NCBI GenBank assembly: GCA_963701965.1
Contig: OY969695.1
Location: forward strand, 4,384,001-4,448,000
Direction: 5' to 3'
Origin: an uncultured Gemmatimonadales bacterium
GTDB taxonomy: Bacteria; Gemmatimonadota; Gemmatimonadetes; Gemmatimonadales; Gemmatimonadaceae
DNA length: 64,000 nucleotides
The translations under genes were made by a program, and so were the position numbers. The stretch's first letter is position 1, and each line of letters begins with the position of its first letter. Shown one piece after another: positions 13,245 through 56,171 of the stretch. The notes beneath the pieces were generated by a model, which ran no database searches, was not told the origin of the DNA, and saw nothing but the letters and a program-made list of their open reading frames with translations.

Positions 13245-14798
13245 GTGACTGACTACGACCTGCTCGCGGAGTTCGGGCGGGTGGACGGACAGACGGTCTA
13301 CCTCGCGCGCGAGCGCGCCACCGGTGCGCTCGCCGTCGCCCGTAGACCGTCCGGTGCGTCCGCCTCTGCTCCGCTCACAGTGTCCCGCGTGCTGGATGGC
13401 ACCGTCCCCGCGGACGGCGCGGTGTGCCCGTCCTGCGTGGGTTCCCTCCGAACGTGGGGACGCTTCTGCCCATCATGCGGCCGGGAAGTCTTTGGCACGG
13501 CCCCGACGACTGGCGAGGCGCCCGGCGCCGCGGAGCTCTTGCAAGCCGTGCGCGATGCGGCCGCGGATCGGTTCGACGTTCTCGGCGCGCTCCCGCGGAG
13601 CGATGGCGGCGATACTATATATTTTGCCGTCGACCTGAATACGGCCGACGTGGTCGCCCTCCGGCTGGCGCGCGAAGGGGTCGAAGCGGATGGCACCCTC
13701 TCGTATTCGCTGGAGCTGCCGCTCACCCTGTCGCCCGTCGGCCCCACGGTCGCACCGCCGGCGCCGGCGCAGGCAGCGCCGCCGAAACCTCCGGCGCCCC
13801 CAGCTGCGCCGCCACCGGCGCCTCCTGCCGTCAACGACGACTCGTTCACGTCGATCTTCGCCGTCGATAGTCCTCGTTCCGCGCCGCCCCCCCGCTCCCC
13901 GTCGCCGCCACCGCCTCCCGTTCCCTCTGCGGCGTCGGCGACGGGGATGATGTTCGCACCCGCGGCCGCACCGCCGGCGCCACCGCCTCCGAAAGCCCCC
14001 GAGCCGGTGACGGTGCCCTCCCCCGACGTCCCACCCGCCGCGAAGCCGCGCTCGCCGGTCCCGCGCGCCGTCATCATCGGCGGTGGCCTCGTCATTGGCG
14101 TCATTGCCGCGGTACTCGTCGTTATGGCGCTCGAGCCCAAACGCGCGCCTTTGGTCGCGGTGGCCGATACCACCACGCCTCCTCCGGTGGTGCGCGACAC
14201 GACGACGCCCAAACCGGCTCCCGTCGTCGACACCACGCCGCGACCGCCCGTTGCTACGCCGGCGCCCGAGCCCAAGCGCCCCGAGCCCCCGAAACCGAAG
14301 CGTCGCGTCGCATCCGCCGACACCGCTGGCCTTGGCGACGCCATCGCGGTCTGTTCGTCCGCCTCCCTCCACAGTCAGTGGCAGACGGCGCGGCCGGCCT
14401 GCGAACGCGCCGCGGCTGCCGGCAACGCGGATGCCGAGCTCTCACTCGGCATGATGCTGTCCCAATCTGGCACCGGCGCACCGCGCAACATGCCGGAAGC
14501 GGTGACGTGGTTTCGCAAATCGGCGGAGCAGGGGAATGCCCGGGCCCGAAACTACCTTGGCTGGGCCTACGCCAATGGCGATGGCGTCGCGCGCGATGGC
14601 GCGCAGGCTTTGTTGCTCTTTCGTCAGAGCGCCGAAGCCGGCAACGCCCAGGGCGAATATGGTCTGGGGATGATGTACGCCAACGGCACCGGCACGATGC
14701 GGTCCGACAGCCTGGCGGTGCAGTGGTTCCGGCGCGCCGCCACCAACGGAGATGCCCTCGCCCGTGGTGAGCTTACCCGCCGCGGACTGACTCCCTGA
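13245..14798 (+). CDS. Membrane protein: kinase-N-lobe-like/zinc-ribbon N-terminal module, Pro-rich linker, one TM helix, C-terminal Sel1-like repeats
   Basis: GTG start at 13245 in frame with ORF 13116; CPSC..CPSC ribbon; TM AVIIGGGLVIGVIAAVLVVMAL; A...LG..Y..G.GV..D...A..WF..AA..G repeats. Confidence 0.8.
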   Translation: MTDYDLLAEFGRVDGQTVYLARERATGALAVARRPSGASASAPLTVSRVLDGTVPADGAVCPSCVGSLRTWGRFCPSCGREVFGTAPTTGEAPGAAELLQAVRDAAADRFDVLGALPRSDGGDTIYFAVDLNTADVVALRLAREGVEADGTLSYSLELPLTLSPVGPTVAPPAPAQAAPPKPPAPPAAPPPAPPAVNDDSFTSIFAVDSPRSAPPPRSPSPPPPPVPSAASATGMMFAPAAAPPAPPPPKAPEPVTVPSPDVPPAAKPRSPVPRAVIIGGGLVIGVIAAVLVVMALEPKRAPLVAVADTTTPPPVVRDTTTPKPAPVVDTTPRPPVATPAPEPKRPEPPKPKRRVASADTAGLGDAIAVCSSASLHSQWQTARPACERAAAAGNADAELSLGMMLSQSGTGAPRNMPEAVTWFRKSAEQGNARARNYLGWAYANGDGVARDGAQALLLFRQSAEAGNAQGEYGLGMMYANGTGTMRSDSLAVQWFRRAATNGDALARGELTRRGLTP

Positions 14799-15348
14799 CG
14801 CCTCCGATGGCCGTCACTCCGCCCGAGACGATAAACGCCATGACATCGGCGCTCGGCGTCGTCAGGTGGATCACATCCGCCGCCGGATAGATGTACAGCC
14901 GCCCGGACAGGCTGTACGAGAACGGCAAGTACACGGTGACGTGATCCGCCAATCCGAGCCCGGACAACGACTCCTGCGTGACGAACCCCAGCGCCCGCGC
15001 CGACAATGGGCCCTCCGGCGCCGGCACCAGCACGGGGGCATCGAACCGTCGCTTCTCGCCGACGAACGCGTTGAGCAGGTCTTTGGTCGACGTGTAGAGC
15101 AGCCGCACGAACGGCAGCCGCTCGATCGCCCCGTCGAGCGTATTGAGCAACCCCTTCGTCAGCAGCGTCGATCCCAGAAACCCGACCAGCGTGATCAGGG
15201 CCAGGGTGAGCACGAACCCCAGTCCCGGAATCGACAGCTGCAGCAGTCCGTCGATCGCCGTGAAGATACGAACGCACACGTAGACTGTGACCGCGATCGG
15301 GGCGACGAAGGCCAGCCCGCGCAGGAAGTACGAGACGAGTCGGCGCAT
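14773..15348 (-). CDS. DUF502-family membrane protein
   Basis: Start MRRLVSYFLRGL; PIAVTVY, RLPFVRLLY...K, LGFVT, VYLP, FIVSGG pattern. Confidence 0.8.
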   Translation of the reverse strand: MRRLVSYFLRGLAFVAPIAVTVYVCVRIFTAIDGLLQLSIPGLGFVLTLALITLVGFLGSTLLTKGLLNTLDGAIERLPFVRLLYTSTKDLLNAFVGEKRRFDAPVLVPAPEGPLSARALGFVTQESLSGLGLADHVTVYLPFSYSLSGRLYIYPAADVIHLTTPSADVMAFIVSGGVTAIGGVRESVRGG

Positions 15349-16444
15349 GCGTGAATCTAGCGAGCCGTCGGTCGGGTTTGCGATTGCGTTGATGTTGGCG
15401 GCGAGCCTCCTCGCCGCCTGCGCCCCCGGTCCGTTCCGGTACGTGGACGTCGTCCAGAGCTTTCCCGACATGAACAGCTATGGGGCCGCGATGGACGCGG
15501 TCCGCCACTGGCAGCTCGAACGCGCGGCCGCGCGCCAGTTCTGGGGATTCGCCTACGCCGGCGCGCTGGTCTCGCTCCTCCTGCCGTCGTCCGTCCCTTC
15601 CCTCATCGTGTTGATCGCCGTTTCGGCGGTCGCCGCCTGCATCGCCACGGCACTGGCCCACCACCTATGGGGCGGATGGATTGCCGCCGGCATGGCGGCC
15701 GTCGGCTGGCCCTGGATCCAACGCGTGGCCTTTGGCGGGGCCGAGCCACTCTTTCTCGCGCTGGTGCTGGCGGCATTGGCCGCCGCCCGGCGCGAGTGGT
15801 GGGTGCGCGCCGCGTTGGCCGCGGCGTTGGCGACGACCGTCCGCCCCGTCGGCGTGTTCGCGCTGGCCGCCGTACTCGCCGTCGCGGTACGGCGACATCC
15901 CCGGTCCGCCCTCGCCGGCGCCGGCGTCTCCCTGCTCGTTCTGGTCCTCTATTGCGTCCCCGTCGCCATCGGAACGGGTGATCCGCTGGCCAACGTGCAT
16001 TGGTACATGCCACAAATGACCAACGGGTTGCCAGTCGGGATACCGTTCGTCGGTCTCTGGCGCGGGACGCGAACGAACCAGGTGAGCGTGCTTCGCAATA
16101 TTGAGATGCTAACCGCGGTCGGCGTCGTCCTGGCACCGGTTGCCGTGTGGGTGCTCTCGGCGCGTTGCCGGGTCGCCGCCGCCCGGTACCCGGCCGAGAC
16201 GATCTTTGCGCTCGCCTATTCGGGATTTCTCGTCACGCTCAACTGCCCTCCCTGCGCGTGGTTCTTCCCCAGATTCGCCATCATCTCGCTCCCGTTCGCG
16301 TTGCTCACCGTCCGGCGCTGGTTGCCCCGGGACGACCGCGTGTTGGCCGGAGCGGCCGTCATTTCCGCGCTCATCGCCGCGGCGACGCAGATCAATATGC
16401 GCGATCCAGGTACGAGCCTTTTACACCTGTTCGTCCATTTATAG
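15347..16444 (+). CDS. Polytopic membrane protein, probable GT-C fold (mannosyltransferase-like) glycosyltransferase; start uncertain
   Basis: Many hydrophobic helices; AEPLFLAL, ALATTVRPVG and late PRF motifs resemble GT-C enzymes. Confidence 0.55.
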   Translation: MRESSEPSVGFAIALMLAASLLAACAPGPFRYVDVVQSFPDMNSYGAAMDAVRHWQLERAAARQFWGFAYAGALVSLLLPSSVPSLIVLIAVSAVAACIATALAHHLWGGWIAAGMAAVGWPWIQRVAFGGAEPLFLALVLAALAAARREWWVRAALAAALATTVRPVGVFALAAVLAVAVRRHPRSALAGAGVSLLVLVLYCVPVAIGTGDPLANVHWYMPQMTNGLPVGIPFVGLWRGTRTNQVSVLRNIEMLTAVGVVLAPVAVWVLSARCRVAAARYPAETIFALAYSGFLVTLNCPPCAWFFPRFAIISLPFALLTVRRWLPRDDRVLAGAAVISALIAAATQINMRDPGTSLLHLFVHL

Positions 16445-16472
16445 TTGACTTCGGTTTCAGGCCAGATACATT
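16445..16472 (+). promoter_or_regulatory. Putative sigma70 promoter (TTGACT-16 nt-TACATT) for the CsgG-like/beta-barrel/RCC1 operon
   Basis: Hexamers at 16445-16450 and 16467-16472; GGAGG at 16493-16497. Confidence 0.55.
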
Positions 16473-16502: not shown

Positions 16503-17435
16503 CTGAAGCACAGAGCTGGCTGGAGTGTCGCGTGCGTGGCGCTGGCCTGGGCTGCCGCTGCTTGTCACCCGACAACGAGTGCCGTACCTGCGCGTGCCGC
16601 GGCTGATAGCGCGGCGCGGCGGGCCATTGCCAACGAGCGTGGCATTGATGTCCGCGCGCTTCCCGAACGCTCGATCGGCGTCGCCCCGTTGGCCGCCGAT
16701 ACGAACGACCGGATCGTCGGGCCGCTCGCCTACGCGTTGCCCGATCTCCTGATGGCCGACCTGGCGCAGAGTCACCAGGTTGTCGTGGTCGATCGCATCC
16801 GGCTCGACGCGATGCTGCGCGAGTTGAAGCTCGTCTCCTCGGGGCGCGTCGATACCGCGACGGCGCCGCGGGTCGGGCGTCTCGTGCAGGCGCGCCGGCT
16901 CGTCGTCGGGCGCCTGACGTCGTCGGGCGAAGGGAAGCAAATCAACATGGACATTCGGGTGGCCGATGTCGCGTCGTCGCAGATGGCGGGCGGGGTGTCG
17001 GCGCGCGCGCCGGCCGCCGATGTGATTGCCGCCGAGAAGGCCCTCGCCTTCCGGCTGTTCGATGTCCTCGGGGTCACGTTGACGCCCGTCGAGCGCACCG
17101 CGGTCGAGCAGCGGCCGACGAAGCACCTGTCGGCGCTCCTGGCCTACGGGCGTGGCGTGCGCGATGAGGCGGCGGGGCAATACGGCGACGCCGAGCGCGA
17201 ATACGCCGCGGCCGCGAGCATCGACCCCTCCTTCTCGCAAGCGCGGACCCGGTTCAACGCCACGCGACAGGTCAATGGCAATCAAGGCTCGCTCATGAGG
17301 GCGTCCTTCACGGCGGCCGATGCCGTGAACCCGAATCTCACGGACCCCGCCAGCGTATCGCGCATCGGCGGGTCGGCCGATCCGTCGTTCCCCCAACCGG
17401 TGACCGTCATTCTGACGATCACCAACGTGCCGTGA
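16503..17435 (+). CDS. CsgG/HfaB (TolB-N-like) domain lipoprotein with TPR; start either CTG 16503 or GTG 16536
   Basis: Lipobox AAAC; SIGVAPL..DLL..DL...VVVVDR..LDA.L.EL.L...G.VD..TA.RVG.L..AR.LVVG; TPR-like ALLAY.RG....G.Y..A...Y..A..IDP.F..A. Confidence 0.72.
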   Translation: MKHRAGWSVACVALAWAAAACHPTTSAVPARAAADSAARRAIANERGIDVRALPERSIGVAPLAADTNDRIVGPLAYALPDLLMADLAQSHQVVVVDRIRLDAMLRELKLVSSGRVDTATAPRVGRLVQARRLVVGRLTSSGEGKQINMDIRVADVASSQMAGGVSARAPAADVIAAEKALAFRLFDVLGVTLTPVERTAVEQRPTKHLSALLAYGRGVRDEAAGQYGDAEREYAAAASIDPSFSQARTRFNATRQVNGNQGSLMRASFTAADAVNPNLTDPASVSRIGGSADPSFPQPVTVILTITNVP

Positions 17436-18634
17436 TGCGGCACCGGTCTCTGGTCCTCGCCCTGCTCACGGTTCCCGGCATCGCCCGGGCCCAGGAGCGG
17501 CTGACGGGCATCACGAACAGCGACCTCACGCCGACGTTCAGCTACTGGACCTTCGGCGCGGGCGCGGTCCAGCCGGACGCCCTGGGTGGCGACAGCGTGC
17601 GCGTCTCGCACGTCTGGCAGTTCGCGGTCCCCATCGCGGTCGCGGTGCCGATCGGCGATCGCATCGTCATTGACGCGAGTGGCGCTTGGCAGACCGGTGA
17701 GGTCGAACTGGCCGGTGCCGACACGGCCCTGCACACGACCCACTACACCCTGAGCGGGCTCACCGACATCAAGCTGCGCATGGTCGCCCGGCTCGCCGGC
17801 GACAATGTCCTGCTCACCCTCGGCGTCAATGCTCCGACGGGGACGACGTCCCTCAACGCCCAACAGTACAAAGCGCTCCGGGTTCTCGCCGCGCCAGCGC
17901 TCGAGCTTCCCAACTCCACTCTGGGCACGGGTGCGGGCGGGACAGCCGGGATCGTGTTCGCGCGCCACATCGCGGGATGGTCGTGGGCCGTCAGTGGCGG
18001 GTACGAGATCCACGGCAGCTACGTCCCGATCCAGGCATACGCCGCCTTTGCCCAGGCGCCCGACTACCAGCCGGGCAACACGGCGCACTTTCAGCTGGGC
18101 ACCGACGGCTATATCGGATCGAGCAACATGACGATCAGCGTGGCCGCCAACGTCTATGCGCACGACAAGCTGACCAGCGTGGATTCGTCCGGCGCCAAGT
18201 TTTTGACCAACGTCTATCTCGGCCCCAGCTTCGAGGCCAACTGGCAGTGGCAGTTCGCGGCGCCCGGATTCCGCGAGTTGAGCCTCTACGCCCTCGACCG
18301 CTATCGGACGCGCTACAACGAGGGTGGTCCCTCGATCGCCGGTACCGACGGCAACTATCTCGACGCCGGGATCCATGCCGCCGTGCCGCTGGGCGAGTCG
18401 ACGAGCGGCGTCGCGACGCTGGGTCTCGTCCAACAGACCGGACTCTCCATCGACCATTCGTTCGCGACCGCGGGCATCACCGCCGGGGCGCTGACCCTCG
18501 GGATCGCGCAGGACTTCGGGATGTATCGGCTGGAGCCGTTCGTCCGCGGCGAATTCGGCACCCTCGATCTCGGCACCCACTCGCCCTCGGCCGCTTCACT
18601 GGCCGCGGGTCTCACGTTCCGTCTTCGTATCTGA
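17432..18634 (+). CDS. Secreted protein, probable outer-membrane beta-barrel
   Basis: Signal peptide ending ARA-Q; alternating amphipathic strands rich in aromatic residues; GLTDIKLR and GVNAPTG motifs; C-terminal strand AGLTFRLRI; GTGA-coupled to the upstream gene. Confidence 0.65.
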   Translation: MMRHRSLVLALLTVPGIARAQERLTGITNSDLTPTFSYWTFGAGAVQPDALGGDSVRVSHVWQFAVPIAVAVPIGDRIVIDASGAWQTGEVELAGADTALHTTHYTLSGLTDIKLRMVARLAGDNVLLTLGVNAPTGTTSLNAQQYKALRVLAAPALELPNSTLGTGAGGTAGIVFARHIAGWSWAVSGGYEIHGSYVPIQAYAAFAQAPDYQPGNTAHFQLGTDGYIGSSNMTISVAANVYAHDKLTSVDSSGAKFLTNVYLGPSFEANWQWQFAAPGFRELSLYALDRYRTRYNEGGPSIAGTDGNYLDAGIHAAVPLGESTSGVATLGLVQQTGLSIDHSFATAGITAGALTLGIAQDFGMYRLEPFVRGEFGTLDLGTHSPSAASLAAGLTFRLRI

Positions 18635-18642: not shown

Positions 18643-21600
18643 ATGCCCTCCCGATGGCGGGCACCGGCGGCGCTTTTAGCGCTGGCGCTCATGTTCGCCT
18701 GTCTCAAGGGACGGGGCCCCACGGACGCCGGGGCCAGCGACGTGCGGTTCTCATTGCACACGCAGGTGACGTCGACGGCGGGATCCGACCTGCACGTGCG
18801 GGTCGTGTATCTCGATCAGCCGGCCACGGGAGCCACGACGCCGGTGCCGGTGAATCTCGTGGACCAGCGGTTTCCGGTGACGACGGGCACGACGCGGCTG
18901 CCGCTGACGGTGGATTTGTCGCGATGCCTCGCCGATCCGCGCCGCTTGGTGCCGGGCACGCTGTGCCAGCTGATCGTGTCGATCGCGTTGGAGCAAAACG
19001 GGGTCGCGGTGGACAGCACGACGCTGCCGCCGGTCGCGGTGGTGCCGGGACAGGTGATCGACGACACGACGTCGGTCAGCGCGGTGGGCCAGGTGAAGGT
19101 GGTGCCCGCGGAGACGAGTGTCGCCGTGGGCGGGACCGTGCAGTTGTCGGACACGGTGTTCGACATCAACAACGTGGCGCTGCCGGGTCACGCGGTGACG
19201 TGGGCGAGCGCCGCCGACACGGTGGCGACGGTGAACGCGACGGGCCTGGTCACGGGGGTGCGGGCCGGCACGACGCAGATCACGGCCAGCGCCGGCGGAC
19301 AGGTGGGCACGGCGCTGCTGACGGTGACGCCGGGGGCGACCGGGGGCGGGGGACTGACGCTGCAGATCGGCACGGTCTCGTTCTCGGCGCCGGCCGGGGG
19401 CACGCTGCCAGCGAACGGGTTCATCGGGGTCACGTCGAGCGATACGACGACGGTGGGCGGTCTGACGGCGACCGTGACGTACGGCGCGGGGGCCACGGGG
19501 TGGCTGTCGGCCAATGTCAGCGATAGTGCGTTCGGGAGCGTGGCGACGAAGCCCAAGCCGGGCCTCGGCATGCCGGGCCTCGCTATGTCGGGCCTCGCCA
19601 TGTCGGGCCGGAGGGCGGCGACGACGCGGGCGCGGGGCGCGGTGCACGCGCTGGCCGGAAGTAACGTCACGACGCCGGCGACGCTGGACGTGGTGCCGAA
19701 CACGACGGGTCTCGCGGTGGGGACGTACACGGCGACGGTGACGGTGAGCGGGAGCGGCGGGCAAACGGCGACGCTCAATGTGTCCTACGCCATCAGCTCG
19801 GGCGCTGTCATTGCCGTGACTCCGAACGCGGTGGTGGACACCGCCGTGCAGGCCGGCGCGGCCGTCACCAAGAAGGTCGTCGTCACGAACATCGGCACCG
19901 GGTCGCTGAGCGGACTGTCGACGAGTGTGACGTACGGCGCGGGGGCGACGGGTTGGCTCGGCGTCGCGCAGAGCGGGACATCGGCGCCGGATACGCTCAC
20001 GCTGACGGCAACGCCCGGCACCAACGCGCCGGGCACATACTCGGCGCAAGTCACCGTGGCGTCGTCCGTGACGGGCGTCCCGCCCGTGAGCTTCGCCGTG
20101 CAGCTCCAGCTGACGCCAGGGACGAATCTCGGGCTCTCGCCCGCGGCTGTCACGTTCAATGTGTACTCGTTCGGCGGCACGCCGATCACGTCGCAAACCG
20201 TCACCGCGATCAACACCGGCATCGGTACGCTCGGCACGGTATCACAGGCTGACACCATCTCGTATGCGGGGAACACGGGCACCTTCGCGATTGGCTGGCT
20301 CGGTATCGGTGTCAGCGGCACGGCCATCACGCTCTCGATTCCGTCGACGACGCTGACGTTGGGGACGCTGACGGCGACGGTGCCCTTCGCGGCGACGAAC
20401 GCACTCAACAATCCGCAGACGCTGTCGGTTACCACCAACGTCTACGTCACCTTCACCAAGATCGCGGCGGGCTCCGAGTTCGCGTGCGGCCTCACCACAA
20501 TCGGGACGGTGCTGTGTTGGGGCGACAATACCTACGGACAGCTCGGGCAACAGAATCTGATATTGCCCAAGCTGTCGGTCGCCATTCAAACATTCCTACC
20601 GGTCGATTTCTCGAACCCGGTGGTCGACATTGAGACCGGTGGCTTCCACGCCTGCGCGCTCTTCCAATCGGGTGCCGTGTGGTGTTGGGGCAGGAACGAT
20701 CACGGTCAATTGGGCCTCGGGAACACGACGAGTCCCAATCCCGCGCCCACGCAGATCGCCGGGACCTGGTCGGCCATCGCCCTCGGCATGCAGCATACCT
20801 GCGCCATCCAGTCTGGGACGTTGCCGAACTACGTCGACTGCTGGGGTGACAACAGTGACGGACAACTCGGTCTCGGGGGCACGGTCAGCACGACGCCCGT
20901 GACCACGCCAACACAGACCACGGCCGGTCCGCTGGCGACGATAGCCGCCGGGGCGTTCCATACTTGTGGTGTCACCAGTACCACGGGTGGCAACATCGAG
21001 TGTTGGGGCGATAACACCTACGGCCAACTCGGTAACACGACGGTCGGCGGCAATTCGACGAATCCGGGTATCGCCATCCTGGACCCTCAAGGTATCCCGC
21101 CAAAGCAGGTGAGCGCCGGCACGTTCAATACGTGCGCCTTGGACGTGGCAGGCAACGGCTATTGCTGGGGTGACAATACGTACGGGCAGCTCGCCAATGG
21201 CACCACCGGTACGCCGGTCGGTCAGCCCGTGCTGCTGCCGGTGGCGAACTTCTCTTCCATCAGCAATGGATACGCGACCGTATGCGGCATCGCCGCGAAC
21301 GGGACGTATTGCTGGGGCAACGGCAGCAACGGACGCCTGGGCAACGGCACACTCGGCGTCAACGCGCTGGCGCCGACGTTGGTGACTGGAGGAACGGCTG
21401 GGAACTTCACCCAGATCGTCTCGTCGGCCACGGGATTTTATGGCTGCTTCATTAGCGGTGTCGTCGTGTCGTGCTTCGGATCCGACAATGCCGGGCAACT
21501 TGGCAACAACGACAACTCGGGAACGAGCTTCGCGACTCCTGTGCCGATGCTCGGTCAACCCGCGCCGGCCGGTGTCACGCCATCGCGCACGGGTCCCCGC

Positions 21601-21669
21601 ATCACGCCGCGCCGGACGCCGGTGCACGCCCAAGCCCGACCCCAGACACCTCTGGTAAAACGTCGATGA
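18643..21669 (+). CDS. Large lipoprotein A: N-terminal domain + Ig-like (Big_2) + 3 BACON-like repeats + 7 RCC1-like repeats
   Basis: Start MPSRW...LMFAC; VTWAS..TVATV...GLVTGV..GT..ITA (Big_2); TYGAGATGWL repeats; seven C(W/F)G.N..GQLG blades. Confidence 0.85.
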   Translation: MPSRWRAPAALLALALMFACLKGRGPTDAGASDVRFSLHTQVTSTAGSDLHVRVVYLDQPATGATTPVPVNLVDQRFPVTTGTTRLPLTVDLSRCLADPRRLVPGTLCQLIVSIALEQNGVAVDSTTLPPVAVVPGQVIDDTTSVSAVGQVKVVPAETSVAVGGTVQLSDTVFDINNVALPGHAVTWASAADTVATVNATGLVTGVRAGTTQITASAGGQVGTALLTVTPGATGGGGLTLQIGTVSFSAPAGGTLPANGFIGVTSSDTTTVGGLTATVTYGAGATGWLSANVSDSAFGSVATKPKPGLGMPGLAMSGLAMSGRRAATTRARGAVHALAGSNVTTPATLDVVPNTTGLAVGTYTATVTVSGSGGQTATLNVSYAISSGAVIAVTPNAVVDTAVQAGAAVTKKVVVTNIGTGSLSGLSTSVTYGAGATGWLGVAQSGTSAPDTLTLTATPGTNAPGTYSAQVTVASSVTGVPPVSFAVQLQLTPGTNLGLSPAAVTFNVYSFGGTPITSQTVTAINTGIGTLGTVSQADTISYAGNTGTFAIGWLGIGVSGTAITLSIPSTTLTLGTLTATVPFAATNALNNPQTLSVTTNVYVTFTKIAAGSEFACGLTTIGTVLCWGDNTYGQLGQQNLILPKLSVAIQTFLPVDFSNPVVDIETGGFHACALFQSGAVWCWGRNDHGQLGLGNTTSPNPAPTQIAGTWSAIALGMQHTCAIQSGTLPNYVDCWGDNSDGQLGLGGTVSTTPVTTPTQTTAGPLATIAAGAFHTCGVTSTTGGNIECWGDNTYGQLGNTTVGGNSTNPGIAILDPQGIPPKQVSAGTFNTCALDVAGNGYCWGDNTYGQLANGTTGTPVGQPVLLPVANFSSISNGYATVCGIAANGTYCWGNGSNGRLGNGTLGVNALAPTLVTGGTAGNFTQIVSSATGFYGCFISGVVVSCFGSDNAGQLGNNDNSGTSFATPVPMLGQPAPAGVTPSRTGPRITPRRTPVHAQARPQTPLVKRR
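18679..19796 (+). repeat. Copy 1 of a ~1.1 kb near-identical direct repeat (5' part of lipoprotein A)
   Basis: Matches 21705..22804 apart from scattered substitutions and one variable linker. Confidence 0.95.
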
Positions 21670-39585: not shown

Positions 39586-40100
39586 CCCGCAAGACCGACG
39601 CCGAGCGCGCCGTCCGCCCGTCAGTCCTCGATCGGCTGATGGACAACGATCCGGCGGCCGGCGTCGACGCGCCGATCTCGTGGGGACAGTCCGTGCGCCA
39701 GCTCAAGGCGTCGCTGTGTCGCGATCTCGAGTGGCTGCTCAACTCGCGGCGGTCCCTCATCGAGATTCCCGAGGCATACGAGCACCTGCGCGCGTCGCTG
39801 CTCAACTACGGCTTGGTCGACGTGACGTCCCTCACGCGCGACGACCCGCAGACCCGCTCCCGCATCATCCGCGAAGTCGAGCGCGCGATCACCACGTTCG
39901 AGCCCCGGCTCGCAGCCGTCAAAGTCTCGCTGGCCTCGGACGGCAATCCCGACGGTCCCGCCGGCGGGCCGCGGCGCGAGCTGCGGTTCGTGGTCGAGGG
40001 ACTGCTGCGCATCGATCCGCAGCCGGAGCAAGTCGTCTTCGACACCGTGCTCGAAGTCACCAGTGGAGACTATCAGGTCCGGAGCAGCGGCGGTGCGTGA
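39582..40100 (+). CDS. tssE: T6SS baseplate TssE (gp25-like)
   Basis: PSVLDRL.D, RDLEWLLN, SLLNYGL.D, FEPRL; GTGA overlap with tssA. Confidence 0.93.
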   Translation: MTRKTDAERAVRPSVLDRLMDNDPAAGVDAPISWGQSVRQLKASLCRDLEWLLNSRRSLIEIPEAYEHLRASLLNYGLVDVTSLTRDDPQTRSRIIREVERAITTFEPRLAAVKVSLASDGNPDGPAGGPRRELRFVVEGLLRIDPQPEQVVFDTVLEVTSGDYQVRSSGGA

Positions 40101-47664: not shown

Positions 47665-48258
47665 ATGACCGCGACCAAGACGGCGGCACCGCCGCCACCG
47701 ATGCCGGCCAATGTGGCCAGGGCCGCCCAGCTGGGAGACGACGCCGCGAAAGCGCTCCGTCCGGGTCTCGGTTCCCGCGAGTACGTCGCGGCGCTCCTCG
47801 CCGCGTCGCTTTTTCGCGATGCCGTGCGCTTCGTCGCGTTCGCGCTGCCGCGACGCGAAGCGGTGTGGTGGGCGTTGCTGTGCGCGCGCGAAGCCGCGGG
47901 CGACGCCCCGCCGCCCGCGGTGCGGGCCGCCCTCGACGCGACGGACACGTGGGTGCGCCATCCGGGCGACGAACAGCGTCGCGCGGCGATGGCCGCCGCC
48001 AAAACCGCGGAATTCTCGACATCGGCCGGATGCGCGGGCCTGGCCGCCTTTCTGAGCGGCGGAAGCCTGTCCGTGCCGGGACAACCGGATGTGCCGCCCG
48101 GGCCGTTCGAGTGCGCCAAGGCCGCGTTTGGGGCCGTGGCGGTGGCGGCGATCGGCACCGACGCCAAGACGGCGAACGACCGATATCGCCGCTATGTCGA
48201 GCAGGGTCTGCACATCGGCGAAGGCGCGGGTGCGTGGCACCCCGGTGGGAAGGTCTAG
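47665..48258 (+). CDS. DUF6931-like all-helical protein between vgrG and PAAR
   Basis: DAVRFVAFALPRREAVWW..LC, W...P....R.A, AAFLSGGS; recalled family assignment, not searched. Confidence 0.6.
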   Translation: MTATKTAAPPPPMPANVARAAQLGDDAAKALRPGLGSREYVAALLAASLFRDAVRFVAFALPRREAVWWALLCAREAAGDAPPPAVRAALDATDTWVRHPGDEQRRAAMAAAKTAEFSTSAGCAGLAAFLSGGSLSVPGQPDVPPGPFECAKAAFGAVAVAAIGTDAKTANDRYRRYVEQGLHIGEGAGAWHPGGKV

Positions 48259-48548
48259 TGGGACTACCGGCCGCCCGCCTCACCGACATGCACGTGTGCG
48301 CCATGGTGACAGGCATCGTGCCGCACGTCGGCGGCCCCGTTGTTGGCCCGGGATGTCCGACGGTCTTGATCGGCGGGCTGCCCGCCGCGCGGGTCGGCGA
48401 CATGGCCGTGTGCGTCGGACCGCCGGACGTGATCGCGATGGGCGCCTTCACGGTGCTCATCGGCGGAATGCCCGCCGCCCAGATGGGCAGCCTCACGGCC
48501 CACGGCGGCACCATCGTGCTGGGATGCCCCACGGTGTTGGTCGGATGA
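48258..48548 (+). CDS. PAAR-domain spike tip protein (96 aa, no C-terminal extension)
   Basis: PAARLTD.H.C, TVLIGGLPAARVGD, PAAQMG..TAHGG; GTG overlaps the upstream TAG. Confidence 0.93.
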   Translation: MGLPAARLTDMHVCAMVTGIVPHVGGPVVGPGCPTVLIGGLPAARVGDMAVCVGPPDVIAMGAFTVLIGGMPAAQMGSLTAHGGTIVLGCPTVLVG

Positions 48549-48615: not shown

Positions 48616-50574
48616 TTGCGCGTCTTGATCCTGAGATCGACCGGACTCCTGGTTGCCTCAGCACTGGTCGCCTGTTCCAGCGATTCCCATTCGACCAACC
48701 CTGGTCGGATGGCCATTACGCCGGACACGGCGGCACTGTTTCTCGGAGACTCGCTCCAGCTGACCGTGGCGAGCGCGCCGGGCTTCATTACATGGAGCTC
48801 CAGCGACAGCACGGTCGTCTCCGTCCTCCACGGCATGCTCACGGCGTTGAGCCGGGGCCACGCGACCATTTCCGCGCTCTCGGGGTCGTCGACCGCCTCG
48901 GCGTCGGTCGACGTCACGCTGCCGCCCACCATTGCGCTGGCCACGACCAGCGTCACGTTCGAGGCGCCGACCGGCGCCGCCGCGCCACCCGCGCAGAACG
49001 TCGGCGTCGCCAACGGCGGTGATGGACCGCTCACCAATCTTTCGGTGGGCCTCATTACCTACAGCCCTGGTGCCGCCGGCTGGCTGACCGCCACGCTGCC
49101 GTCGTCGGCCACCGCGCCCACCACCCTGACCGTGCAACCGACGACGGCCAAGCTGGCCGCGGGCACGTACTCGGCGACCGTCCCGGTCCTCTCGCCGGAA
49201 GCGACGAACTCGCCGCGGTCGCTCACGGTCACTTACGTCATCGATCCGCCGTCGATCATCGTCCTGTCGCGGAGCTCCGTCGCCATCGCCGCCCAGGCCA
49301 ACGGCGCGCTGCCATCGGTCCAGACGGTCAGCATCACGAATAACGGCGGCGGCTCGGTCCAAGGCCTGGCGCCAGGAACGATCACGTACTCGGCAGGTGC
49401 GACCGGGTGGCTCACCGCGACTCTGACGTCAACCGTCGCGCCGTCCACCCTGAGTCTGACGGCGACGACCACGGCGCTGGCGGTCGGCACCTACACCGCC
49501 ACCGTGCCGCTCACCTCGACGACGGCGGGTGTGAGCCCGCTGTCGCTGACCGTGACGTACAGCGTCACGTCCACCGCGGCACCGGCCGCGATCGCCCTCT
49601 CGTCGTCGACGGCGTCGTTCACCGCCAACACCGGCGGCGTGCTACCGGCGGCGCAACCGGTCTCCGTGTCCAACAGCGGCGGCGGCGCGTTGACGGGCCT
49701 GACGGCCAGTATCACCTACGGCGCCGGTGCGTCGGGCTGGCTCGGGGCCACGCTCAACAGCACGAGCGCGCCGGCCACATTGAGCGTGCGACCGTCGACG
49801 GTCCTCGCGGCCGGGACGTACACGGCCACTGTGAGCGTCGCATCGGCGACGGCGTCCAACACGCCGCAGAATGTCGGCGTCACCTACACGGTCACGACGG
49901 CGCCAATCATCACGGTGTCGGCCACCTCGGCGTCCTTCCTGTCGCAACAGGCGAACGTCGATCCGGCGAATCAGATCATCAATGTCTCGAACACGGGCGG
50001 GGGATCCCTGACCGGCCTTTCGACGGCGATCGTCTACAAGGGCGCCAACACGGGATGGCTCACCGCGACGGTGGCGGGCACCGCGCCGCTCAATCCGTCG
50101 ACGACGCCGCTCACGCTGCAAGTCACGACGGGAACGATCGTGCCCAGCACCGACACCGCGACGGTCACGCTCTCGTCGACGGTGTCTGGAGTGGCCCCGA
50201 AGGCCGTGACCGTGGTCTTCCTGCGACAGGCGACCCTGACGAACGACGTCATCCCGCAGGTGTTCGCGGGGGCCGGCGGCTGCACGTCGTGCCACTCCGG
50301 CAGCACGCCCGCGGATGGCCTCGACTTGTCGACGCCGAGCTCGGCGTTCGCCGGTCTCGTGGGCGCCACGCCGACGGCGACGGTGTCGCCGCCGATTCAG
50401 TTCCGTGTCGCGGCGGGTGACTCGACGAATAGTTGGCTCAATCTCGAGCTCAAAGGTCAAGCGGGTTCCGCCAACATGCCGTTCGGCTGCTCCACCGCCG
50501 GGACGCCGCCGTGCATTTCCTCCGCTCTGCAGAAACTCGTCGCGACGTGGATCCAACAAGGGGCGATTCAATGA
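48616..50574 (+). CDS. Lipoprotein: Ig-like (Big_2) + 4 BACON-like repeats + C-terminal mono-heme cytochrome c domain
   Basis: LVAC lipobox; ITWSSSD.TVVSV; four TY..GA.GWL repeats; CTSCH followed by GLDL, GDS..SWL, NMP, WIQQGA (planctomycete-cytochrome-like pattern). Confidence 0.8.
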   Translation: MRVLILRSTGLLVASALVACSSDSHSTNPGRMAITPDTAALFLGDSLQLTVASAPGFITWSSSDSTVVSVLHGMLTALSRGHATISALSGSSTASASVDVTLPPTIALATTSVTFEAPTGAAAPPAQNVGVANGGDGPLTNLSVGLITYSPGAAGWLTATLPSSATAPTTLTVQPTTAKLAAGTYSATVPVLSPEATNSPRSLTVTYVIDPPSIIVLSRSSVAIAAQANGALPSVQTVSITNNGGGSVQGLAPGTITYSAGATGWLTATLTSTVAPSTLSLTATTTALAVGTYTATVPLTSTTAGVSPLSLTVTYSVTSTAAPAAIALSSSTASFTANTGGVLPAAQPVSVSNSGGGALTGLTASITYGAGASGWLGATLNSTSAPATLSVRPSTVLAAGTYTATVSVASATASNTPQNVGVTYTVTTAPIITVSATSASFLSQQANVDPANQIINVSNTGGGSLTGLSTAIVYKGANTGWLTATVAGTAPLNPSTTPLTLQVTTGTIVPSTDTATVTLSSTVSGVAPKAVTVVFLRQATLTNDVIPQVFAGAGGCTSCHSGSTPADGLDLSTPSSAFAGLVGATPTATVSPPIQFRVAAGDSTNSWLNLELKGQAGSANMPFGCSTAGTPPCISSALQKLVATWIQQGAIQ

Positions 50575-51863
50575 TGCGTGCGTGGCCACGGTCCGCGATG
50601 GTCGCCGTCGTCCTCTTGGCGACTCGGTTGCCGGCGCAAGAGCCGAACATGAAGACGGATATCCGCAATCTGTTCCACTTCGGCACGTGCTCGGAGCTGA
50701 TCTGTCTCAGCTTGTCCGCGGGCCCACACGGGTCGCACTTCAACCCGGATGCCGATGCCAGCGGCCAGGAGTTGATCGACTTCCTGGATCAAGCGATCAC
50801 GACCAGCATCGGCGACGTGCCGATCGGCGGCACCAGCAGCGGCGCGGTCTTCTCGTTCGACGCGAACGGCGTCCCGATCGCCTCGTCGGGCTCGACCGGG
50901 CCGATATTCGGCGAACGCGCGCAGACGCTGGGGCGCGGGCACCTCGTCGTCGGTGTCAACGGCACCAGTGAGAATTTCGCGGCGATTCGCGGCGTGCCGC
51001 TGAGCGACATGTCCCTGGCCCTCACGCACCAGAACAACGATCCGCTCAGCGGCAACAAGCTGGGCGATCCGACGTTCGAATACGACTATATCCAGATCAA
51101 CACGTCGATGCGCCTGTCGCTGCAGACGTACGCGGCGTACATCACGTACGGCTTGGCGAACCACGTGGACTTGAGCGTGGCCGTGCCGCTCGTGCACCTG
51201 ACGTTCAACGGCACGAGTATCGCGAGGATCGTCACCAGCAACCCGGGCCCGGCCGATCACTACTTCAAGGGCACTGCGACGAACCCGCAGCTCGTGGATA
51301 CCACGCACAGCTCGGGCAACGTCACGGGCGTCGGCGACATGTCTATACGCCTCAAGGCCAATCTCTACCAGTCGGCCGGGGCCGGGTTCTCGCTGCTCGC
51401 CGACCTCCGTCTGCCGACGGGCGACCAGAACAACCTCCTGGGCACCGGGACGATCTCCTGGCGAGCCCTGGCGATCGCCTCTACGCGCTGGGGATTCGTT
51501 GAGCCCCACATCAATGTCGGATATGAGTATCAGAATGCGATTACCGAGACGGGAGCCGCGTTGACGACCGTCGGGCTCGATGCCCGGTTGGCGTCGCCGA
51601 TCACGTTCGCGGGCGAGGTCATCGGCCGCTGGGCCGTGGGTCCCAACGTGCCGTTGCCGGGGCCGGCGTCGTATATAGATGGTAGTGTCGTCCAGCGAAC
51701 GACGTTTCCGAATCAGCGCGACAACAATCTCGATGGGGCGGTGGGTCTCAAAATCGGCGTCGGGGCGGGGTTCACCTTGCTCGGCAATACGATCTTCCCG
51801 ATTCAGGACAACGGAGTCAAGTCGAACCTGATTTGGACTGTCGGACTCGAACGGAGCTTTTAA
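50571..51863 (+). CDS. Outer-membrane beta-barrel ('transporter', MetA-phenol-degradation-like)
   Basis: Signal peptide; ERAQTLGRG, YGL...VDLSVAVP, GVGDM.IRLK, RLPTG..NLLG.G; terminal GLERSF; ATGA-coupled to the cytochrome gene. Confidence 0.72.
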   Translation: MMRAWPRSAMVAVVLLATRLPAQEPNMKTDIRNLFHFGTCSELICLSLSAGPHGSHFNPDADASGQELIDFLDQAITTSIGDVPIGGTSSGAVFSFDANGVPIASSGSTGPIFGERAQTLGRGHLVVGVNGTSENFAAIRGVPLSDMSLALTHQNNDPLSGNKLGDPTFEYDYIQINTSMRLSLQTYAAYITYGLANHVDLSVAVPLVHLTFNGTSIARIVTSNPGPADHYFKGTATNPQLVDTTHSSGNVTGVGDMSIRLKANLYQSAGAGFSLLADLRLPTGDQNNLLGTGTISWRALAIASTRWGFVEPHINVGYEYQNAITETGAALTTVGLDARLASPITFAGEVIGRWAVGPNVPLPGPASYIDGSVVQRTTFPNQRDNNLDGAVGLKIGVGAGFTLLGNTIFPIQDNGVKSNLIWTVGLERSF

Positions 51864-51873
51864 TCTTCAGTCT

Positions 51874-54438
51874 GTGAACGCGACGCGCACTCTTCCCGCT
51901 ACCGCCTCCCTCCTCGACGCTGTCCGGGAGGCATCGGCATCGCGGTACGATGTGCTCGGGGAGCTGGGGCCGAGCGCGCGCAGTGTCATGGCCTACCTGG
52001 CGCAATTGCGCGCGGACGGGTCGCTCGGGATCCTGTTGCTGGAACGCGATCCGACGGCACCGGTCGGCGAGGATCGCTATGGGCTGACCGAGGCTCTGGA
52101 ACTGGACGACCGGGTGCCGACGCTCGGTCTCACCTGCGATGCCTGCCAGGCGCCGCTGGGCACGTGGGCCGCACGGTGCGGCGTATGTGGCGGCGACGTG
52201 GTGGGGACGCCCGACGATCCGACGGCGATCGCGACGCTGGCGGCGGGCCGCTACACGCTCCTGGGCTCGATGCGCCGCCCCGGGGGGGGCGCGGTCTATT
52301 TTGCCCGCGAACGCGAACGCGAACGCGAACGCGAACGCGAACGCGAACGCGACGCGCTCGTCGCGCTCCGCCTGATGCCGAGCGGCGAGACGGCGGCGCC
52401 CTACACGCTGGCGGTCACGCCGATCGATCCGGCGCGCGCGCCGCTCCTGCCGACACCCCCGGCGGCGCCGCGGACGCCGGACGTCACGGGGACCACCCGG
52501 CGCGTGCGCCCCACGGTGACCGCCCCGGCGACGAGCACGCGGGTGTGCGCCCAGTGCGGGGTCGAGTATCCGGCCGAGCAGCGATTCTGCCCGACGGATG
52601 GCTCGCCGCTCCGGGCGAAGACCGGCGGGTCGGGCCTCATCGGCGAGATCGTTGCCGACCGGTACCACGTCGTCCGGGCCCTCGGCGAAGGGGGGATGGG
52701 ACAGGTGTATCTCGCCGAACAGGTCAAGATGCGCCGCATGTGCGCCCTCAAGGTGATGCGGCCGGCGCTGGCCACCGATGCGGACGCGGTACGCCGCTTT
52801 GGCGCCGAGGCGGAAAACGCCAGCCGGATCGCGCATCCCAACGTCGCGGCGATCTACGATTTCGGTGAGACGACCGAGGGGCTCGTCTATCTGGCGATGG
52901 AGTTCGTCGACGGCGAGCCGCTGGCCGCGATCCTGGCGCGCGAGCGGACGCTGGCCCCGGGCCGCGCCGCGGCCCTGTCGCGCCAGGTCGCCGACGCATT
53001 GAGCGCCGCGCACGAGCTCGGGATCGTGCATCGCGATCTCAAGCCGGACAATGTCATGATCACGCGGGCCAAGGACGGCTCCGAGCGCGTGAAGGTGGTC
53101 GACTTTGGCATCGCCAAAGCGATGGCCGACGGACGCACGCAGATGACGCGGACCGGTTTCGTCCTGGGCACGCCGGCGTACATGAGTCCGGAGCAGATCT
53201 CCGGCGATGCGCTCGATGGCCGCACGGATCTCTATAGCCTGGGCTGCATGCTGTTCGAGATGCTGACCGGGCGCGCCGCGTTCAGTGGACCGTCGGGCGA
53301 GATCGTCCTGCACCGCCGGTTGACCGAGCCGGCCCCGCGCCCCCGGTCGATCAATCCGGACGTGCCGAAAGCGCTCGACCTGCTGGTGACCAAAGCGCTC
53401 GCCCGTCAGGCGAACGACCGCTATCAGTCCGCGGTCGAGATCAGCGCCGCGCTGGCCGAGTGCGACACCGGTGACGACGGCGCGGCGTCGATCGGAGCCC
53501 GCCTCTTTGGATGGGGCGCGCGGCCGTCGGCCGGTGGCACGCGCACGACGATCGTCGTCGGCCCCAAGGGCGCGACGACCGTGGTGCGCAGCAGCCCCAC
53601 GACGCGTGCGGTGTCCCCGAGTCGCGCCCGACCCTCCTCCCGGCGCCCCGCGCTCTGGGCCGGCGGCCTCGTCGTCCTCGTGGCCGCCGCGGCGGCCGTC
53701 GGCGTCCGGTATTTCAACCGCGCGCCGGCGCCGGTCGCGGCCGCGACACCGGCCCCGGCACCGACCGTGGCCGCCCCGTCGCCACCGACCGCTCCAGTCA
53801 CGGCCGCCGTACAGAGCGACACGTTGACCACGGCCGCCCAGACGGCGGGGACTACCGCGGAAAAGCCGGTCAAGTCGACGACCACGCTCAAGGCGCCGCC
53901 GGGTCCAAAACCCAAGCCCGCCGTCGCCACGCCGGCCGTGTCGGCGGTCCCGCCCGCGTCGTCGACGGCGACCGCTGTGGCGCCACCGCCGGTACCGGTG
54001 CCGACGCCGACTCCGGTCGCCGTGACGCCGGCACCGGCTCCCGCGACGCCCCCTCCCGCCGCGACGCCGGCGCCCGCGGCGGCTCCCGCCACGGACGTCG
54101 CGGCCGACGCGCAGCGGGCGAACGACGTGCTATCGGGCTACGTCAGCGCGCTCAACGCCAAGGACGTCGCCGGTATGAAGCAGCGCTATCCGACGATGCC
54201 GGGCGCCCTGGAGAACGGTCTCCGGCAGTTGATCGCGAACGCCACGGATTTCTCGGCGGCGCTGACCGACTACCCGTCCGCGGCCGTGCACGGGGATGTG
54301 GCCGACGCCGACTTCGGCTACCTGATGAATTTCTATCTCCCGTCCCAGGGTGCCGGACACACGAAGCTGCGCTACCACGCGGTCATGGCCCGGGACGCGT
54401 CCGGCTGGCACATCAAGTCCCTCACCGCGCTGCACTAG
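51874..54438 (+). CDS. Hanks-type Ser/Thr kinase with N-terminal kinase-fragment/zinc-ribbon module, TM helix, Pro-rich linker and NTF2-like C-terminal domain
   Basis: LGEGGMGQVY, ALK, HRDLKPDN, DFG, YMSPE; CDAC..CGVC and CAQC..CPTD ribbons; TM LWAGGLVVLVAAAAAVGV. Confidence 0.9.
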   Translation: MNATRTLPATASLLDAVREASASRYDVLGELGPSARSVMAYLAQLRADGSLGILLLERDPTAPVGEDRYGLTEALELDDRVPTLGLTCDACQAPLGTWAARCGVCGGDVVGTPDDPTAIATLAAGRYTLLGSMRRPGGGAVYFARERERERERERERERDALVALRLMPSGETAAPYTLAVTPIDPARAPLLPTPPAAPRTPDVTGTTRRVRPTVTAPATSTRVCAQCGVEYPAEQRFCPTDGSPLRAKTGGSGLIGEIVADRYHVVRALGEGGMGQVYLAEQVKMRRMCALKVMRPALATDADAVRRFGAEAENASRIAHPNVAAIYDFGETTEGLVYLAMEFVDGEPLAAILARERTLAPGRAAALSRQVADALSAAHELGIVHRDLKPDNVMITRAKDGSERVKVVDFGIAKAMADGRTQMTRTGFVLGTPAYMSPEQISGDALDGRTDLYSLGCMLFEMLTGRAAFSGPSGEIVLHRRLTEPAPRPRSINPDVPKALDLLVTKALARQANDRYQSAVEISAALAECDTGDDGAASIGARLFGWGARPSAGGTRTTIVVGPKGATTVVRSSPTTRAVSPSRARPSSRRPALWAGGLVVLVAAAAAVGVRYFNRAPAPVAAATPAPAPTVAAPSPPTAPVTAAVQSDTLTTAAQTAGTTAEKPVKSTTTLKAPPGPKPKPAVATPAVSAVPPASSTATAVAPPPVPVPTPTPVAVTPAPAPATPPPAATPAPAAAPATDVAADAQRANDVLSGYVSALNAKDVAGMKQRYPTMPGALENGLRQLIANATDFSAALTDYPSAAVHGDVADADFGYLMNFYLPSQGAGHTKLRYHAVMARDASGWHIKSLTALH
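52306..52352 (+). repeat. Hexanucleotide microsatellite (CGCGAA)x7 encoding (RE)7
   Basis: Directly visible, in frame. Confidence 0.95.
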
Positions 54439-56171
54439 CGCACGGTCACCCGGACCGTCGCCTCGCGTCCCGCCGCGCTGGCGCGGACATTGGCCGTGCC
54501 GGCGCCCCGGGCCGATAGCTCCCCGGTCGCCGGATCGATGGCGGCAATGACCGGGTTGTCCACGCTCCACGCCAGTCCGATGTTCGCCACCGGGCGGTGG
54601 TTCACGTCGTAACCCGCCCCGGCCAACTTGTACCGTCCGCCGACGCGCAGCGTCGGCGGTGGCTCGATCTGGATCCATCGCACGCCGTGCGCCGCCGCCG
54701 GGGCCACCGGGGGCGCGACGACGGGAACCAGCGCTGGCGGGGCCTCGGGCGGCGCGGGCCGTGACTGCCACCACTCGAACCCGCCCACGGCGCCCGCGCC
54801 GAGAACGGCGACCACCGCGACCACGGCGAGCCAGGGGCTCCGCTTCCCCGACGGCACCGGGGCGGCCACCGGCGGCGGCACGACGGGCACCGGCACCGGC
54901 GCCGGCACGACGGCGGCGGGCGGCGTGGTGAAGCCCGGAGGCCGGGTAACCGTCAGCGAGATCGCCGCCCGCGCCTCGCCGGCGGCCGCGCGCACGATGA
55001 CCGATCCCGGCGCGATCGCCCGCGCCAAACCTTGGCTCTCGACGCGCACAATGTCGGGCGCATCGGACGTCCAGGTCACGCTGGGCGCCGGAATCTCCGC
55101 ACCGCGCGCGCTCCACGCGGTGAGCTTGAGCGGCACCGTGTCCCCGACGCCGATCTCGCCAGGCGCGGTAATGGCGAGCCGGCTGGCCGCCACGGCCGTC
55201 GTGCGCGCGCCGCCGCGGGGGATGGGACTGGGCACGCCCTTCACGATGGCGGTGTCGAGTCCCGCGGTCGCCCACTGCGCCAGTTGGACGCGCGCCGGGT
55301 CGTCGTCACTGAGCTCCCGCGCCCCCGCCGCCGCTAGCGCCGCCGACATCGTGGGCCACCGCTCGGCGGCCGTCTTCGCCAACATGCGCCGCACCGCGGC
55401 GTCGAGGTCATCGGGGCAGTCCGGGCGCCGCTCGACGATCGGCGCCGGCGGCCGGTCCGTGTGCGCCTGCATGATCGCCAGCGCCGACCCGGTGAACGGC
55501 ACCGATCCCGTGAGCATCTCGTAGGCGACGACGCCGAGCGCGTATTGGTCCGAGGACCAGGTGACCTCGACGCCCCGGCACTGCTCGGGACTCATGTAGA
55601 TCGGCGTGCCCACGGCCGCGCCAGTCTGCGTGTGGGTCTGCGACTCGGCGACCTTGGCGATGCCGAAGTCCGTCACCATGGCCTCGCCGGTCGCGTCGAT
55701 CATGATGTTCGCCGGCTTGATGTCCCGGTGGATCACCTGCTGCCGGTGCGCGTACGTGAGGGCGCTGCCCACCTGGCAGAGGATGTGTCGCGCGATCGCC
55801 AGCGGCATGGTCCCCTGCGCCGCCAGGATCTCGGCCAACGGGCGGCCCACGACGAACTTCATGACGAAACAGTGCAGGTCGCCGATCTCCCGCACCGCAT
55901 GGATCGTGATGATGTTCGGATGACTCAAGTTGGCGACGGTGACCGCTTCCTGTCGAAACCGCTGCACCATGCTGGCGTCGGGCAGGAGCCCGGGCGACAT
56001 GACCTTGATCGCCACCCGCCGGTCGAGGGCCGGTTCATAGCCCAGGAAGACGGCGGCCATGCCGCCGCGTCCCAACTCGCGTTCGATGATGTAATCGCCC
56101 GCGAGCGCGTCGTTCAGCCGGTCCGCGATCGTCGACCAGCTCGAATCATTTCCGGGGATCGAGGCCGTCAC
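54435..56171 (-). CDS. Hanks-type Ser/Thr kinase with Ig-like (Big_2) domains on both sides of a TM helix
   Basis: [40 protein letters not shown] and WSVDNP.IA.ID Ig-like motifs. Confidence 0.9.

Follow-up and report, generated by a model that had tools for sequence, protein, structure and literature searches.

In this study we describe a type VI secretion system (T6SS) locus at positions 13245-56171 of a window of 64,000 nucleotides, the whole stretch of DNA that was analyzed, which is part of a Gemmatimonadota genome of 5.1 Mb in one contig (95% complete; genome G000, contig C1). The original prediction, made from the letters of the window, had listed 12 core genes (tssA, tssB, tssC, hcp, tssE, tssF, tssG, clpV, vgrG, tssK, tssL and tssM) together with PAAR and TagJ, and with core genes called by Pfam and NCBIfam profiles, all of these matched above the Pfam cut-offs. 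Several features had been absent from it: a second tssK gene, a gene lying on the opposite strand between the two tssK genes, which we call gene X, the HemK-like methyltransferase, the DUF6931 protein, a CsgG-like lipoprotein, and the CxxCH motif of the lipoprotein to the right of the core. The central genes are as follows.

24610-28071, minus strand: tssM, without C-terminal extension
28068-28763, minus strand: tssL, short form without OmpA domain
28760-30088, minus strand: tssK1, the faster-evolving paralogue, in the same orientation as tssL and tssM
30121-31571, plus strand: gene X, with a kinase N-lobe-like domain (30121-30414), a Pro-rich linker bearing three Thr-centred motifs, and a C-terminal transmembrane (TM) segment
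31568-32929, minus strand: tssK2, the more conserved paralogue
32974-34446, plus strand: HemK-like methyltransferase
34528-35049, plus strand: tssB
35103-36533, plus strand: tssC (start position uncertain)
36592-37083, plus strand: hcp
37094-37795, plus strand: tagJ (ImpE)
37804-39585, plus strand: tssA, long form (ImpA_N and VasJ)
39582-40100, plus strand: tssE
40093-41940, plus strand: tssF
41937-42956, plus strand: tssG
42953-45631, plus strand: clpV/tssH
45640-47661, plus strand: vgrG, without extension, the sole copy found in the genome
47665-48258, plus strand: DUF6931 protein
48258-48548, plus strand: PAAR, without extension

The components of a T6SS of type i (T6SS-i) are present: the tail set TssB, TssC, Hcp, VgrG, PAAR and ClpV, the baseplate proteins TssE, TssF, TssG and TssK with TssA, and the membrane-complex pair TssL and TssM. 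The core genes besides X are intact, with 62-94% identity to the sister genome G401, and VgrG (673 residues), PAAR (96 residues) and Hcp (163 residues) carry no extension, as had been predicted. In a set of plasmid systems, the best TssC match was a Gemmatirosa kalamazoonensis record and the best proteobacterial matches came from Ralstonia (62%). This similarity ranking, with PMC9113992, points to a relationship with subtype i4b; that paper assigns the plasmid systems of Gemmatimonadetes and Acidobacteria to a single i4b branch.

The claim that this T6SS lacks TssJ also held. A search with the TssJ profile PF12790 gave no match in this genome, in any of 40 other TssM-positive Gemmatimonadota genomes (0/40), or in five acidobacterial genomes reached through TssK2 (0/5); the profile recovers TssJ of E. 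coli and TssJ of a single-TssK acidobacterial system, and a very divergent TssJ could escape it. The TssM copies listed have no Acinetobacter-like C-terminal extension and end at the usual C-terminal Cys motif (three copies cut by contig ends or frame breaks were set apart), which rules out an extension of TssM as the substitute for TssJ, and no OmpA domain was found on TssL among the copies listed.

Gene X is hidden from a view of the open reading frames by a frame switch near a run of seven C (30614-30620). If this switch were a true frameshift, the system might be decaying in this genome with no effector left, as the single VgrG and the failure to find a PAAR-linked toxin would also suggest. 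However, the switch falls at a homopolymer, other genes in the assembly are likewise split (a peptidase gene at 4167-6324 and an FHA-protease gene), sister genomes carry an intact X, and the other core genes are intact; we consider decay improbable.

We searched 401 Gemmatimonadota genomes, 39 with TssM and 362 without, using a profile built on the first 97 residues of X. X was found as a single copy in 41 genomes: all 39 TssM-positive genomes and two of the 362 TssM-negative genomes (G119 and G115). The former carries tssL-tssK1-X-tssK2 on a 6-kb contig, so that here too T6SS genes stand beside X. X and tssM are no more than about 3 kb apart in 38 of the 39 genomes. In G243, the one exception, X adjoins a cassette of CsgG-like, barrel and kinase genes and is not between tssK genes (G243 and G404 share contig and coordinates and were counted once). 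X is upstream of tssK1 in 14 of the 15 relatives first read, with a ~30-kb insertion separating tssK2 in G282, and 18 further genomes gave tssK1-X-tssK2 in 16, one contig that ends inside X, and G115, where 38 kb held no T6SS gene. The genomes counted here are related, and kin are not independent. Among 1.84 billion representatives (clusters at 50% identity), we found 477 homologues of X at E-values up to 1e-10. The family has no Pfam entry, its neighbors in the ESM Atlas are unnamed clusters from Gemmatimonadota and Acidobacteriota, and a PDB sequence search gave nothing useful.

To describe the architecture of X, we surveyed the best 150 of the 477 homologues, 107 of which have at least 280 residues; these were picked by the N-domain, and the motif pattern was drawn from the loci. 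The 107 proteins contain 371 Thr-centred motifs (1.5 expected after shuffling), which repeat G-E-F-T-x-x-F with the consensus P-G-E-F-T-[RQ]-[ML]-F and two conserved aromatics. A TM helix is found in 98 of the 107, followed by a tail of 13 residues or fewer in 77, and the body of X is predicted to be cytoplasmic with its C-terminal anchor in the inner membrane. The N-domain was modeled with high confidence (pLDDT 95.5) in the topology of a kinase N-lobe, every row listed by Foldseek was a kinase or pseudokinase (best TMq 0.65, best E-value 1.4e-3), and hhalign gave 76% against the kinase N-lobe, with the catalytic Lys replaced by an invariant His. X has no C-lobe (no HRD, no DFG), and only 2 of the 150 homologues weakly match the kinase hidden Markov model. 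Thus, model and sequence comparisons indicate that the N-domain is a catalytically dead kinase N-lobe.

The two TssK proteins of the locus are 36% identical. A quick tree of 82 rows with two long outgroups puts TssK1 in one clade and TssK2 in another, with approximate likelihood ratio (SH-aLRT) supports of 99 and 97, and each clade includes members of both phyla. The paralogues are ancient and stably duplicated. The same layout is seen on plasmid pACIX901 of the acidobacterium Granulicella tundricola, where the order is PP2C-tssM-tssL-tssK-X-(amidohydrolase)-tssK with no annotated tssJ. TssK was found in 16 of 151 acidobacterial genomes, and two TssK in the seed genome only, so the two-TssK layout is a minority type in that phylum. 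In single-TssK acidobacterial systems, an FHA protein adjoins tssK in two loci (L139 and L140) and TssJ adjoins it in another (L138).

Several further observations concern the genes around tssK and tssC. Three acidobacterial TssK2 genes (L006, L008, L010) have no other T6SS gene in the surrounding 5-21 kb. The HemK-like gene between tssK2 and tssB, single copy here, occupies the same slot in several Gemmatimonadota and Acidobacteriota loci (L030, L034, L003, L122, L007, L011, L012, L014), and in G343, G058, G218, G119, G235, G032 and G301 the tssK2-tssB slot holds an extra divergent sheath-like gene (26-30% identity to TssC, its N-terminus resembling TssB). The open frame of tssC reaches back to 35040 and homology begins at about 35150, but the first of the common start codons comes at 35202 (stretch 35040-35200), possibly another small assembly error.

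The proposed link to Ser/Thr kinases was borne out by the neighborhoods: of 15 relatives, 14 have a kinase gene no more than 8 kb from the stop of tssM or the end of vgrG, compared to a 6-8% chance of a kinase in a 6-10 kb stretch of this genome. A cognate membrane Ser/Thr kinase is present beside the locus. That Fha and PP2C are missing is true of the locus, as no TagH/Fha or PppA was found in the window, but not of the genome, in which the profiles found nine FHA and three PP2C matches. The original prediction had named a conventional tssJ/fha/effector set elsewhere in the genome as evidence against itself; because FHA and PP2C genes do lie elsewhere, such a set exists in part, without TssJ. 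A kinase-PP2C-FHA trio at about 1,389,500-1,393,700 of contig C1 contains the nearest paralogue of kinase 1 of our locus (56%; see the flank genes below), such a trio directly follows tssM in G248 and G390, and PP2C follows tssM in Granulicella. A second cassette, with FHA, kinase, RCC1, Big_2 and TPR genes, lies distant from the T6SS (L097:10050-17570, at about 1,225k of C1).

Based on these results, we favor, with a probability of roughly 0.5, the reading that this is a TssJ-less T6SS with two TssK proteins in which X acts at the inner membrane as a phospho-scaffold that gives Ser/Thr kinases control over baseplate docking; we infer that X fills the role of Fha/TagH in this i4b-related T6SS. 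A membrane kinase would phosphorylate the invariant Thr of the X repeats, perhaps recruited by pairing of its N-lobe with that of X. The phosphorylated repeats would then bind an FHA protein and/or TssK, and X would thereby recruit the TssK1/TssK2 baseplate to TssL and TssM, as Fha/TagH or phospho-TssL do in known systems. The X motif, which has a hydrophobic residue at the third position after its Thr, is compatible with FHA ligands.

A number of points weigh against this phospho-scaffold. The best Foldseek E-value for X (1.4e-3) exceeds the 1e-3 line, and in the window itself the frame of X is broken. Since the X of Granulicella keeps eight repeats and the anchor with no recognizable N-lobe, the N-lobe is dispensable there, and the repeats might simply dock through hydrophobic contacts. 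Kinase neighbors are not rare, since this genome has 42 kinases, and the genomes compared are related; moreover, G343 has no kinase in the 80 kb read, while the 38 kb of G115 that were read contain X and no T6SS gene. Finally, an X that is predicted to be cytoplasmic does not account for an outer-membrane crossing without TssJ.

Some of the same evidence would fit an X that is purely a structural tether, in which the F-T-x-x-F repeats bind TssK trimers without phosphorylation and fasten the baseplate with its two paralogues to a membrane complex that the loss of TssJ would have weakened, like TsmK of Acinetobacter. X is as conserved as the core genes (39/39) and sits by tssK1 in 38/39, whereas no single kinase, FHA or PP2C gene is so conserved; the N-lobe is missing in the Granulicella protein, and the motif has two conserved aromatics. 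In addition, tsmK occurs only in loci lacking tssJ, according to PMC13584744. Nevertheless, the motif is centred on Thr, a kinase-derived domain is retained in X of Gemmatimonadota, and kinase, PP2C and FHA genes are repeatedly adjacent. We therefore regard the tether as possible, but clearly less probable than the phospho-scaffold.

The genes flanking the T6SS are listed here, the first five to the left and the last four to the right.

13245-14798, plus strand: accessory neighbor, a bitopic protein with a split kinase-N-lobe/zinc-ribbon, Pro-rich linker, TM segment and Sel1 repeats
16536-17435, plus strand: CsgG/LpoB-like predicted lipoprotein (periplasmic domain only), gene 1 of the cassette
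17432-18634, plus strand: left barrel, a predicted outer-membrane beta-barrel of porin/FadL size, without Pfam family
18691-21669, plus strand: predicted lipoprotein 1 with Big_2, Ig-like stalk repeats and RCC1 propeller
21699-24647, plus strand: predicted lipoprotein 2, 62% identical to lipoprotein 1
48616-50574, plus strand: predicted lipoprotein 3 with Big_2, four stalk repeats and a C-terminal CxxCH domain (predicted monoheme cytochrome c)
50574-51863, plus strand: right barrel, PF13557 (Phenol_MetA_deg) family
51874-54438, plus strand: membrane Ser/Thr kinase 1, with zinc-ribbon N-terminus and intact catalytic motifs
54435-56171, minus strand: membrane Ser/Thr kinase 2, with Big_2 domains and intact catalytic motifs

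These flanks had been described as mirror images, and part of the likeness is real. The stalk repeat TYGAGATGWL occurs exactly at 19477, 19930 and 22503, and as variants at 23265 and four times in the right lipoprotein; within the genome this motif is nearly confined to the locus (3 of 4 frames). The proteins starting at 13245 and 51874 do share the kinase-fragment/zinc-ribbon N-terminus (35% identity over 133 residues, E-value 2e-9), but a catalytic kinase domain is missing from the left protein; five proteins of the genome carry the zinc-ribbon module, three of them far from the locus. The Pro-rich linker of the left protein contains one S-F-T-x-x-F motif. The mirror symmetry itself failed: hhalign detected no homology between the barrels (probability 0.4%), so that they were rejected as duplicates, and the left lipoproteins end in an RCC1 propeller, the right one in a CxxCH domain. 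The left barrel was modeled as a porin-sized outer-membrane beta-barrel (pLDDT 70), and a PDB sequence search with it gave nothing useful. The CxxCH of the right lipoprotein (residue 556) is followed downstream by Met-Pro and is kept in G401 and G404; from its sequence, this protein is predicted to be a stalked monoheme cytochrome c adjacent to an outer-membrane barrel and two kinases, which together may form a redox-sensing cassette. Between the zinc-ribbon gene and the left cassette (14773-16444) lie a DUF502 gene and a gene for a multi-pass membrane protein that may be a lipid-linked glycosyltransferase, an arrangement elsewhere seen only in G401.

We then considered how the flank genes are distributed. 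The left barrel is present in 167 of 401 genomes (33/39 TssM-positive and 134/362 TssM-negative) and the right barrel in 144 (25/39 and 119/362), tallies that include three genomes marked unpublished (G156, G181, G056). The left barrel lies within 50 kb of tssM in at least 14 of 39 genomes (five genera, with eight genomes of one genus) and the right barrel in at least 3 of 39; these counts, taken from the matches listed, are lower bounds because many contigs are short. A CsgG-like gene precedes the left barrel in 20 barrel loci wherever both genes were called (calling failed in two loci). In its full five-gene form, which includes another CsgG-like gene as well as a kinase, the left cassette occurs in G102 and G300 without T6SS genes in the 20 kb read, and the right barrel adjoins kinases with no T6SS genes nearby in G343, G310, G045 and G282. 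Thus, because the barrels are widespread without TssM and the cassettes are found away from T6SS genes, we conclude that the flank cassettes are envelope modules of a general kind, which different lineages have brought into the neighborhood of the cluster; the left one is enriched there, and neither is obligatory. In some lineages they probably provide the input signal, but they do not belong to the core.

This distribution bears on the model of the original prediction, in which the whole 43 kb is one system whose two flanks sense a target and signal to the T6SS. It had called for a neighborhood comparison, in which the left CsgG-barrel cassette did prove enriched near tssM, but the right barrel was near it in the few genomes counted above. 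The proximity of the left cassette in those 14 or more genomes plus G401 and G405, the adjacency of the right cassette in G000, G243/G404, G117 and G401, and the near confinement of the stalk motif are what such a unit would predict. On the other hand, the left barrel was not found in 6 of the 39 positive genomes, both barrels are common in negative ones and are not detectably homologous to each other, both cassette types stand alone, and the two flanks were seen together in just two genomes, G000 and its sister G401. The cassettes occur across the phylum, and a single fixed 43-kb system is unlikely.

Still less probable, and in our view very unlikely, is a role of the barrel and the CsgG-like lipoprotein in place of TssJ, as anchor or channel in the outer membrane. 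The association is suggestive, in that the left barrel is found in 33/39 T6SS genomes compared to 134/362 others (family f7: 9/9 compared to 6/61), and neither a TssM extension nor a TssL OmpA domain offers another anchor. However, the cassette is an unlikely outer-membrane route because it was not found in 6 of the 39 genomes, and it is common without T6SS; the CsgG profile matched in the periplasmic part only, and a porin-sized barrel is too narrow for the Hcp tube, which counts against the barrel as a channel.

The description of the locus as effector-less holds here but not for the clade. No effector was found in this genome, which has one VgrG only. Among 114 flanking proteins of 15 relatives, there are DUF2169 adaptors in G164, G197, G248 and G301, a PAAR-like Tox-GHH2 protein in G301 and a weak Imm11 match in G197, and because of these genes we consider the clade armed. 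Orphan effector islands were sought in this genome, and none were found beyond the single VgrG hub, an orphan hcp, and RHS genes without PAAR. The orphan hcp (L096:10353-10904, at about 4,757,350 of C1) is 81% identical to the locus copy and has a 20-residue C-terminal tail, with a DUF3891 gene after it. There are four RHS-core matches in the genome; three are long low-GC genes (L125, L126 and L127, at 363k, 2,923k and 2,944k of C1), with no PAAR in the three scanned. Since two of these three flank genes resembling a type II secretion cluster, the long RHS proteins may take another export route. In Granulicella, a 2,563-residue DUF11 protein, a large surface-type protein, follows vgrG and one small gene (L123:33582-41273).

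The DUF6931 protein gave DUF6931 alone in Pfam and nothing useful in a PDB sequence search, and the family is also present in proteobacterial T6SS loci. It was considered as a TseF effector and rejected, as TseF is a MORN protein according to PMC5379069 and there are no MORN_2 motifs here; bioRxiv 10.64898/2026.06.19.733351 calls DUF6931 a putative immunity protein. A 24-kb stretch of an Azospirillum argentinense plasmid (L095) has the order DUF6931-tagH-tssK-tssL-tssM with no annotated tssJ, and is possibly another TssJ-less system.

We found nothing published on this system, or on TssK paralogues that occur as a pair, in the open literature. One Gemmatimonadota and one Acidobacteriota plasmid T6SS are on record (PMC9113992, PMC13098142), and the parts of these papers at hand make no mention of TssJ loss, two TssK or X. 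Anchoring and triggering of T6SS without TssJ are known mainly from Acinetobacter, and the locus described here would be a second, phylum-wide solution. New here are the core-like protein family X and a stably duplicated TssK in T6SS-i, which bears on a possible specialization of the two TssK trimers within a baseplate wedge. The shared layout of Granulicella tundricola pACIX901 opens the system to test. More tentatively than the phospho-scaffold itself, we suggest that a distinct T6SS lineage of Gemmatimonadota and some Acidobacteriota may have dropped TssJ and Fha and adopted a two-TssK baseplate, a membrane-tethered half-kinase gate whose multi-Thr tail integrates the signals of dozens of receptor kinases, and an undescribed outer-membrane route.

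The i4b systems of Ralstonia, Acinetobacter and Burkholderia (T6SS-1) have the same divergent tssK-tssL / tssB-tssC layout, but in Ralstonia wenshanensis tssJ precedes a single tssK, whereas here X and a second tssK occupy that slot. In Mycobacterium tuberculosis, PknB phosphorylates a Thr of Rv3910 (MviN), and the modified Thr recruits FhaA. The pseudokinase domain of Rv3910 was the Foldseek match of highest listed identity to X (3otv, 24%, TMq 0.62); there the pseudokinase is complete and belongs to a lipid II flippase, while X keeps the N-lobe only, in a T6SS. The membrane complex of Acinetobacter likewise has no TssJ and has a dedicated accessory gene, and it offsets the missing TssJ by TsmK and a TssM C-terminal linker, with TslA also part of that complex (PMC13584744). 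TsmK is a pseudo-ketoacyl synthase, unlike the kinase N-lobe and repeats of X, and here TssM is without extension and there are two TssK; none of the 114 flanking proteins had a ketoacyl-synthase Pfam match, in scans that included no search aimed at TsmK or TslA. In the PpkA/PppA/Fha pathway (TagE/G/H, with TagQRST or RtkS), PpkA phosphorylates Fha or TssL to trigger assembly (PMC13584744). That pathway and the phospho-TssL of Agrobacterium resemble our locus in having membrane kinases beside the cluster, in the PP2C and FHA genes of some loci, and in surface lipoproteins as possible inputs. They differ in that there is no TagH-type gene at our locus, X has no FHA domain, and the adjacent kinases belong to different subfamilies by lineage.

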